A stretch of 64,000 bases of DNA from Escherichia coli (GTDB lineage Bacteria; Pseudomonadota; Gammaproteobacteria; Enterobacterales; Enterobacteriaceae): NCBI RefSeq assembly GCF_045037415.1, contig NZ_CP173438.1. The stretch is one strand, 5' to 3'. Positions 24,985-25,137 of this stretch are shown here, one piece after another. Each line of letters begins with the position of its first letter. Position 1 is the stretch's first letter. A model generated the notes under the pieces. That model searched no databases. It saw only the letters and a program-made list of their open reading frames with translations, and was not told where the DNA came from. The translations under genes were made by a program, and so were the position numbers.

Positions 24985-25137
24985 ATGCCGCAGAAATATA
25001 GATTACTTTCTTTAATAGTGATTTGTTTCACGCTTTTATTTTTCACCTGGATGATAAGAGATTCACTGTGTGAATTGCATATTAAACAGGAGAATTATGA
25101 GCTGGCCGCGTTTTTAGCCTGCAAATTGAAAGAGTAA
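24985..25137 (+). CDS. hokA: Hok-family type I toxin peptide, 50 aa (MPQKYRLLSLIVICFTLLFFTWMIRDSLCELHIKQENYELAAFLACKLKE)
   Basis: Hand-translated from the sequence; below the ORF-track size cutoff; typical Hok hydrophobic N-terminus and conserved Cys; GGAGG RBS upstream. Confidence 0.75.
   Translation: MPQKYRLLSLIVICFTLLFFTWMIRDSLCELHIKQENYELAAFLACKLKE

Follow-up and report, generated by a model that had tools for sequence, protein, structure and literature searches.

An intact hokA toxin gene with an IS150-interrupted control region between glyS and cspA of Escherichia coli

We are confident that a 50-codon reading frame in a 64,000-nucleotide stretch of E. coli DNA (contig NZ_CP173438.1, hereafter the window) is hokA, a gene for a Hok/Gef-family membrane toxin of the chromosomal hokA/sokA type I toxin-antitoxin locus in the glyS-cspA interval, and that this gene is most likely transcriptionally uncoupled and silent. 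hokA itself is already known and is routinely annotated in E. coli. The adjoining IS150 is more than a neighbour of the gene: it interrupts the hokA/sokA regulatory region, and its insertion allele is distinct from the K-12 allele. Both points had been missed by an earlier note on this DNA, which had described the reading frame.

Results

Identity of the reading frame

The frame starts with ATG, ends with TAA and encodes the peptide MPQKYRLLSLIVICFTLLFFTWMIRDSLCELHIKQENYELAAFLACKLKE. The ORF listing places it on the plus strand at exactly the positions given in the earlier note, and, as described there, it lies between IS150 on its left and cspA on its right (Table 1). The GGAGG proposed as ribosome-binding site is present at 24975-24979 as part of the Shine-Dalgarno (SD) sequence AGGAGG, 5 nt before the ATG. 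The hydrophobic N-terminal segment and the conserved Cys are likewise found: residues 7-24 form the hydrophobic stretch LLSLIVICFTLLFFTWMI, as read directly off the peptide and not from a prediction tool, and cysteines are located at positions 14, 29 and 46. Cys29 and Cys46 have been described as hard-coded in HokA, and K-12 HokA is toxic when overexpressed (bioRxiv 10.1101/2025.08.07.668861).

A search with Hok/Gef profiles and an alignment to known HokA, the two checks that the note had suggested, both bear out its assignment. Pfam HOK_GEF (PF01848) matches the peptide with 77.1 bits (cutoff 22, E 7.5e-22), residues 5-46 covering the whole model (positions 1-42 of 42), and the NCBIfam HokA equivalog NF007290 reaches 129.5 bits (cutoff 89) over positions 1-50 of 50. 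The protein is identical to K-12 HokA (b4455) in 49 of 50 residues, the only difference being N37 in the window and S37 in K-12. In RefSeq the identical protein, WP_001135731.1, is named hokA both in strain 4/4, where the context glyS / IS150 / hokA / cspA is the same, and in strain CREC-36, where the locus carries no IS. The gene order glyS-hokA-cspA-yiaG is shared with MG1655, whose annotation lists hokA (b4455), a mokA pseudogene, IS150 and a sokA pseudogene at this position.

It is very improbable that the frame is open by chance or is a decayed Hok-like pseudogene. Short frames are plentiful in this region, with 67 ORFs of at least 20 aa overlapping the 4.5 kb from 22500 to 27000, so a length of 50 codons alone would be insufficient. 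Moreover, the locus is disrupted by an IS, and the dN/dS signal is weak, as the five non-synonymous and four synonymous sites among nine hokA alleles are too sparse to show either constraint or decay. Nevertheless, two independent profiles, both curated, give full-length matches with scores well beyond their cutoffs and lift the frame beyond chance, and the start, the stop, Cys14, Cys29 and Cys46 are kept in all nine alleles compared. The ORF was intact in every allele examined, and a hokA sequence match occurs in 5,425 of the 5,426 complete E. coli genomes, essentially always at the same position. A chance ORF is ruled out by this, and the hokA ORF carries no disabling change of the kind expected of a pseudogene. 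Assignment to another paralogue (hokB, hokC/gef, hokD, hokE or a plasmid hok) has a negligible probability: all paralogues match Pfam HOK_GEF and the generic Hok-family NCBIfam model also matches the peptide, weakly (50.7 bits), but the HokA equivalog is the sole NCBIfam model above its own cutoff, and this score rules the other paralogues out together with the K-12 hokA synteny, the single residue difference from K-12 HokA pointing the same way.

The absence of the frame from the ORF track, to which the note had drawn attention, fits a 60-aa default ORF cutoff and is consistent with a length-cutoff artefact that has no biological meaning.

IS150 splits the hokA leader

Comparison with an IS-free locus (L002) places a complete IS150 within the hokA mRNA leader, 1 nt before the mok ribosome-binding site and in the orientation of hokA. 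The left flank follows L002 up to ATCAAAG and passes into IS150, which runs from TGTACTGCACCC to GGGGTCAGTACA; the locus then resumes with AAGTGAGGC. Since the L002 flanks rejoin with nothing but a 3-bp AAG duplication, the insertion is clean. Over its 1443 bp the element is identical to the copy in strain 98208, and RefSeq annotates it as an IS150 transposase with programmed frameshift. To the left of IS150 remain the putative hokA promoter, the tac 5' element, the ucb-like box and the 3' half of sokA. On its right side lie mokA, hokA, the fbi-like box and the putative promoter of sokA, followed by the first ~25 nt of that gene.

Rfam RF01794 ('sok') matches on both sides of the element. The left match (23391-23544; 89.3 bits, gathering 59) begins at model position 1, and only its first ~77 nt are leader; the right match (24833-24987) stays under the gathering score of 59 with 43.9 bits, contains leader only in its 3' half and ends on the hokA AUG. 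A contiguous hok leader was not found in the window, its two halves (23391-23467 and ~24911-24987) being separated by IS150. Because the RF01794 match lies on the hokA strand and ends at the hokA AUG, it reports the hok mRNA leader and not the antisense RNA. The match was therefore discarded as evidence of an expressed SokA.

Table 1 Features of the window, with positions counted from its first nucleotide
Feature	Position	Strand	Basis or remark
glyS	21148..23217		
Putative hokA mRNA -10 box, TGGAAT	23379..23384	+	6 nt before the putative 5' end; placed by RF01794 start and allele alignment
hokA leader, 5' segment	23391..23467	+	RF01794 match; identical to L002 up to the junction
tac 5' end, GGGUGCUUGAGG	23391-23402	+	start of RF01794 match
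tac hairpin	23401-23439	+	fold of intact mRNA
sokA 3' remnant, part of terminator stem-loop and U-rich tail	23434..23467	-	MG1655 sokA pseudogene sequence, located in the window
ucb-like box, AGCCCCAC	23443-23450	+	fold of intact mRNA
AAG target duplication, 3 bp	23465-23467 and 24911-24913		flanks IS150; comparison with L002
IS150, complete, 1443 bp	23468..24910	+	same orientation as hokA; junctions against IS-free L002
insJ	23515..24036	+	within IS150
insK	24033..24884	+	within IS150
Terminator-like 15-bp hairpin, then UUUUAAUUU	24833..24867	-	inside IS150 right end, reads inward; terminator scan
sokA 5' remnant, ~25 nt	24911..24935	-	exact complement of 24911-24935; start placed from promoter spacing
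SD-mok pairing segment, GAGGCUACC	24915-24923	+	MFE folds
mokA, 29 aa, MPEHHKVSLLLVGNQHRRLGCRRNIDYFL	SD GAGG 24915-24918; ORF 24926..25015	+	ORF listing, translation
Putative sokA promoter: -35 TTGATT (24970 to 24965), 17-nt spacer, -10 TAACCT (24947 to 24942)	24942..24970	-	sequence reading; overlaps dcb
dcb-like box, GGUUAGCCUC	24943..24952	+	MFE folds of intact mRNA without 3' end and of leader remnant
hokA SD, AGGAGG	24974-24979	+	
hokA, 50 codons	24985..25137	+	ORF listing
ysaE, 23 aa, MRNAVRKAGITSRRRFLLFQFAG	25114-25185	-	overlaps hokA 3' end
G+C-rich hairpin, GGCGGGAA-GUUA-UUCCCGCC, then UUUCUU	25146..25165	+	directly 3' of hokA stop; terminator scan
fbi-like box, UUCUCAUUACACCC	25185..25198	+	MFE fold of intact allele including 3' region
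cspA	25325..25537	-	
yiaG	25818..26108	-	
tRNA gene	36894-36967	+	above gathering score
naRNA4 (CssrE) match	37064-37144	-	above gathering score
ES036 (CssrF) sRNA match	39379-39421	-	above gathering score
Rfam rdlD, three matches	45217-45282, 45700-45765, 46183-46248	-	83-88 bits
35-aa Ldr frames, MTLAELGMAFWHDLAAPVIAGILASMIV[N/S]WLNKRK	ends 45438, 45921, 46404	+	one opposite each rdlD match

Elements of the hokA mRNA and of the antisense RNA

The promoters and transcript ends of hokA and sokA were placed by analogy and should be regarded as putative; a consensus promoter scan called neither promoter at its thresholds. At the right end of IS150 we noticed a weak candidate for an outward hybrid promoter, TTGGGG-17-TACCCT.

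The window retains an overlapping mok frame with its own SD, and mokA overlaps the hokA start out of frame. In the predicted MFE structure of the intact allele including its 3' region, the 5' GGGUG pairs with CACCC and UGAGG with UCUCA, as a thermodynamic prediction. Two differences between alleles, G12A in tac and an A to G change in the fbi-like box, preserve or strengthen the predicted pairing; they are compatible with it but do not amount to proof. In the window, tac and the fbi-like box lie 1.4 kb further apart than in the intact allele. If the 3' region is left out, SD-mok is predicted on thermodynamic grounds to pair with dcb in the intact allele, while the G+C-rich hairpin downstream of hokA was seen in all folds of the intact mRNA. 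The predicted folds offer the dcb-like box two alternative partners, SD-mok and the region of the hokA SD. For the leader remnant of the window (24911-24987), the fold was not significant (z = -1.57), and a dcb/SD-hok pairing in this remnant is only a suggestion of the model.

A complete antisense sok gene was not found in the window, the terminator half lying 1.4 kb away, and is present in the IS-free L002. MG1655 sokA (b4614) is a 35-nt pseudogene directly beyond IS150. The 5' remnant in the window runs antisense across the ribosome-binding site and the start codon of mok. Sok RNAs are ~60 nt long (PMC11551753), and the hokA target in E. coli C comprises 52 nt (PMC3562002). In plasmid R1 the Sok promoter is located within the dcb sequence (PMC9841398), and our placement of the sokA promoter is consistent with this. 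Native SokA, as encoded by the intact allele, is predicted to leave its 5' part unpaired and to form a strong stem-loop that is followed by a U tail. A SokA-IS150 chimera of 112 nt is predicted to form a terminator hairpin of 15 bp and to leave its 5' tail free (z = -5.3). The hairpin inside the IS150 right end, read from 24867 to 24833, is a candidate 3' end of such a chimeric RNA.

Allele variation and comparison with K-12 and R1

The window allele differs from other hokA alleles at several positions of its control region. The spacer before the hokA ATG is GGGATG, compared to GGGAATG in seven other alleles, and being 1 nt shorter, it puts mokA of the window in a different frame from hokA, with its stop at 25015. 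In six of the other alleles examined, translation from the mok ATG would run in frame into hokA and yield a HokA with an N-terminal extension. While the hokA SD is AGGAGG in the window, most other alleles have AGGGGG and one extra spacer base, and the putative -10 box is TGGAAT in the window and TAGAAT in most other alleles. The tac/fbi match is also weaker in the window allele than in the others.

MG1655 carries the same gene (b4455, formerly yiaZ) at the same glyS-cspA position, with a protein that is identical in 49 of 50 residues, and there, too, the leader contains an IS150, which separates hokA from the 3' part of sokA. However, the K-12 element has the opposite orientation and is without a target duplication, whereas that of the window has the hokA orientation and the AAG duplication. 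The K-12 leader has furthermore lost 39-40 bp comprising SD-mok, the mok ATG, the SokA 5' region and dcb, while the window keeps mokA, dcb and the sokA promoter; its mokA, because of the spacer that is 1 nt shorter, is out of frame with hokA. In the K-12-type allele (L003 1050-1060, 2495-2505) an extra T is found at the left junction, 1-2 bp from the insertion site of the window. A derivation of the K-12 allele from the window type by inversion or adjacent deletion was considered, but the missing duplication, the 39-40-bp loss and the extra T fit no simple single event.

The locus resembles hok/sok of plasmid R1, the paradigm of type I toxin-antitoxin systems, whose regulatory model with a tac/fbi lock, ucb and dcb is summarised in PMC9841398. 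Here or in the IS-free allele we recognise a ~50-aa Hok, an overlapping mok with SD, an antisense Sok that covers the start region of mok, a predicted tac/fbi pairing, and ucb and dcb boxes. In contrast to R1, the window locus is chromosomal and IS-interrupted, and the likeness is known from sequence and predicted folds.

Frequency of the insertion and the IS150 hot spot

Junction-specific sequence searches over 5,426 complete E. coli genomes detected the intact hokA leader junction in ~2,800 genomes, the IS150/hokA junction of the window in 875 and the K-12-type junction in 1,654. In about half of the complete genomes, therefore, IS150 interrupts the hokA leader, and it does so in two distinct forms. 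Insertions of the window type, all with the AAG duplication, are found on at least three allelic backgrounds of hokA, which differ from one another by 3-4% in their flanks, and the IS150 copies in other backgrounds show 0 and 4 differences from the window copy in 1443 bases. This points to independent hits or to spread of the insertion after divergence of the alleles.

The same arrangement is found outside hokA. IS150 is co-oriented with hok in hokA (AAG duplication), hokC (ACC), hokE (CCC) and plasmid hok (CCA), and in each of these four hok paralogues exactly 1 nt separates the end of the 3-bp duplication from the mok SD, which reads GAGGC or GGGGC (loci L005, L006, L007, L008, L009, L015). 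The insertions in hokC, hokE and plasmid hok thus share orientation and site with that in hokA but differ in paralogue, flanks and duplications. We read these junction sequences as a nucleotide-precise, orientation-specific IS150 hot spot in hok loci.

Such a hot spot is known in outline. IS150 disrupts sokA in MG1655 and, in over 400 isolates, sokE (PMC11551753), and repeated identical IS150 insertions adjoining hokC, hokE and mokB were described in experimental evolution, in LTEE-derived lines (PMC5419217). Our literature search returned no match that pairs hokB with IS150. Our contribution is the homology of the insertion sites at the nucleotide level across four paralogues. As the recurrence of IS150 at hok loci has already been published, the population picture refines existing knowledge and is no new discovery. 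A related situation is found in K-12, where hokC/gef and hokE carry IS186: as in hokA of the window, the toxin ORF is intact and a regulatory element of the mRNA is disturbed (PMC3562002). However, the IS186 copies lie 3' of the ORF and eliminate the fbi region, while IS150 of the window is inserted upstream and removes promoter, tac and ucb.

Neighbouring features

A match to the cspA thermoregulator (RF01766; 501 bits) encloses the gene to the right of hokA. Several RefSeq (PGAP) records call this gene cspE, although it is cspA: its protein is identical to PGAP CspA elsewhere, its position is that of MG1655 cspA, and it is located within the thermoregulator match. The 23-aa frame on the minus strand at the hokA 3' end corresponds to ysaE of MG1655 and is named 'hypothetical protein' in other RefSeq records. 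Further along, the window contains three tandem ldr/rdl type I toxin-antitoxin units (45160-46410). The Ldr frames, with 35 aa, are likewise under the 60-aa ORF cutoff. At this position K-12 presumably has a single ldrD/rdlD.

Discussion

By analogy with the R1 model, the intact hokA locus would produce a single mRNA of ~340-400 nt starting with GGGUGCUUGAGG, whose 3' box fbi would hold the mRNA 5' end (tac), while ucb would mask the mok ribosome site. Translation of mok would be required for Hok translation, and antisense SokA RNA would cover the mok initiation region. In the window, IS150, which points towards hokA and sits 1 nt ahead of the mok ribosome-binding site, places the putative promoter, tac and ucb 1.4 kb from mokA-hokA-fbi and cuts sokA ~25 nt past its putative start. 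Since the hokA ORF is untouched but its control region is split, we regard hokA of the window as an intact toxin gene that is most likely transcriptionally uncoupled and, judged by this analogy, essentially silent. This is most likely IS-mediated inactivation of the same kind as described for hokA, hokC and hokE of K-12. In the passages of bioRxiv 10.1101/2025.08.07.668861 that cite Pedersen and Gerdes 1999, even the intact chromosomal hokA of E. coli C is described as giving no post-segregational killing.

Instead of being silenced, the locus may have been rewired, although we consider this unlikely. Read-through, from insJ-insK or from the distant hokA promoter, would then yield a mokA-hokA transcript that lacks tac and ucb, and this transcript would be restrained by a chimeric antisense RNA of ~110 nt, composed of the first ~25 nt of SokA and the IS150 right end and terminated at the inward hairpin described above. 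As IS150 is co-oriented with hokA and a terminator scan found no plus strand terminator between insK and mokA, read-through from the transposase genes or the hokA promoter could reach mokA-hokA. The shared orientation of IS150 and hok in all four paralogues with this insertion would also fit such an arrangement, as would the retention of the putative sokA promoter together with the SokA segment that matches the mok SD and AUG in antisense. In agreement with this, the 112-nt chimera is predicted to fold well, with its 15-bp terminator hairpin, and the hokA ORF is intact in the 875 genomes with the window junction. However, this proposal is built on prediction throughout. The same passages on E. 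coli C speak against it, as they report for the intact hokA neither post-segregational killing nor activation by rifampicin (bioRxiv 10.1101/2025.08.07.668861, citing Pedersen and Gerdes 1999). Furthermore, the K-12-type allele has lost the SokA 5' region and the mok start and is nevertheless even more common, with 1,654 genomes; because of this, control of HokA by SokA is evidently dispensable in the K-12-type allele. We keep to an uncoupled and probably silent hokA as the preferred reading.

An extended proposal would join this rewiring to the hot spot, and we hold it to be somewhat more doubtful still. IS150 would recognise a structure-defined site in the hok leader, namely the 3' arm of the ucb/SD-mok inverted repeat, which equals the Sok terminator hairpin, and would insert 1 nt ahead of the mok ribosome-binding site, always in the same orientation. 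The result would be a unit in which hokA is fed by read-through from IS150 and restrained by a chimeric SokA that uses the inward terminator of IS150.

For annotation, the locus illustrates that common ORF cutoffs miss type I toxins of 35-50 aa, and the window also hides three Ldr toxins in this way. For the hok family, hits at the same position and in the same orientation in four paralogues indicate a sharply defined IS150 target, and a recurrent, possibly selected, uncoupling of chromosomal Hok toxins.
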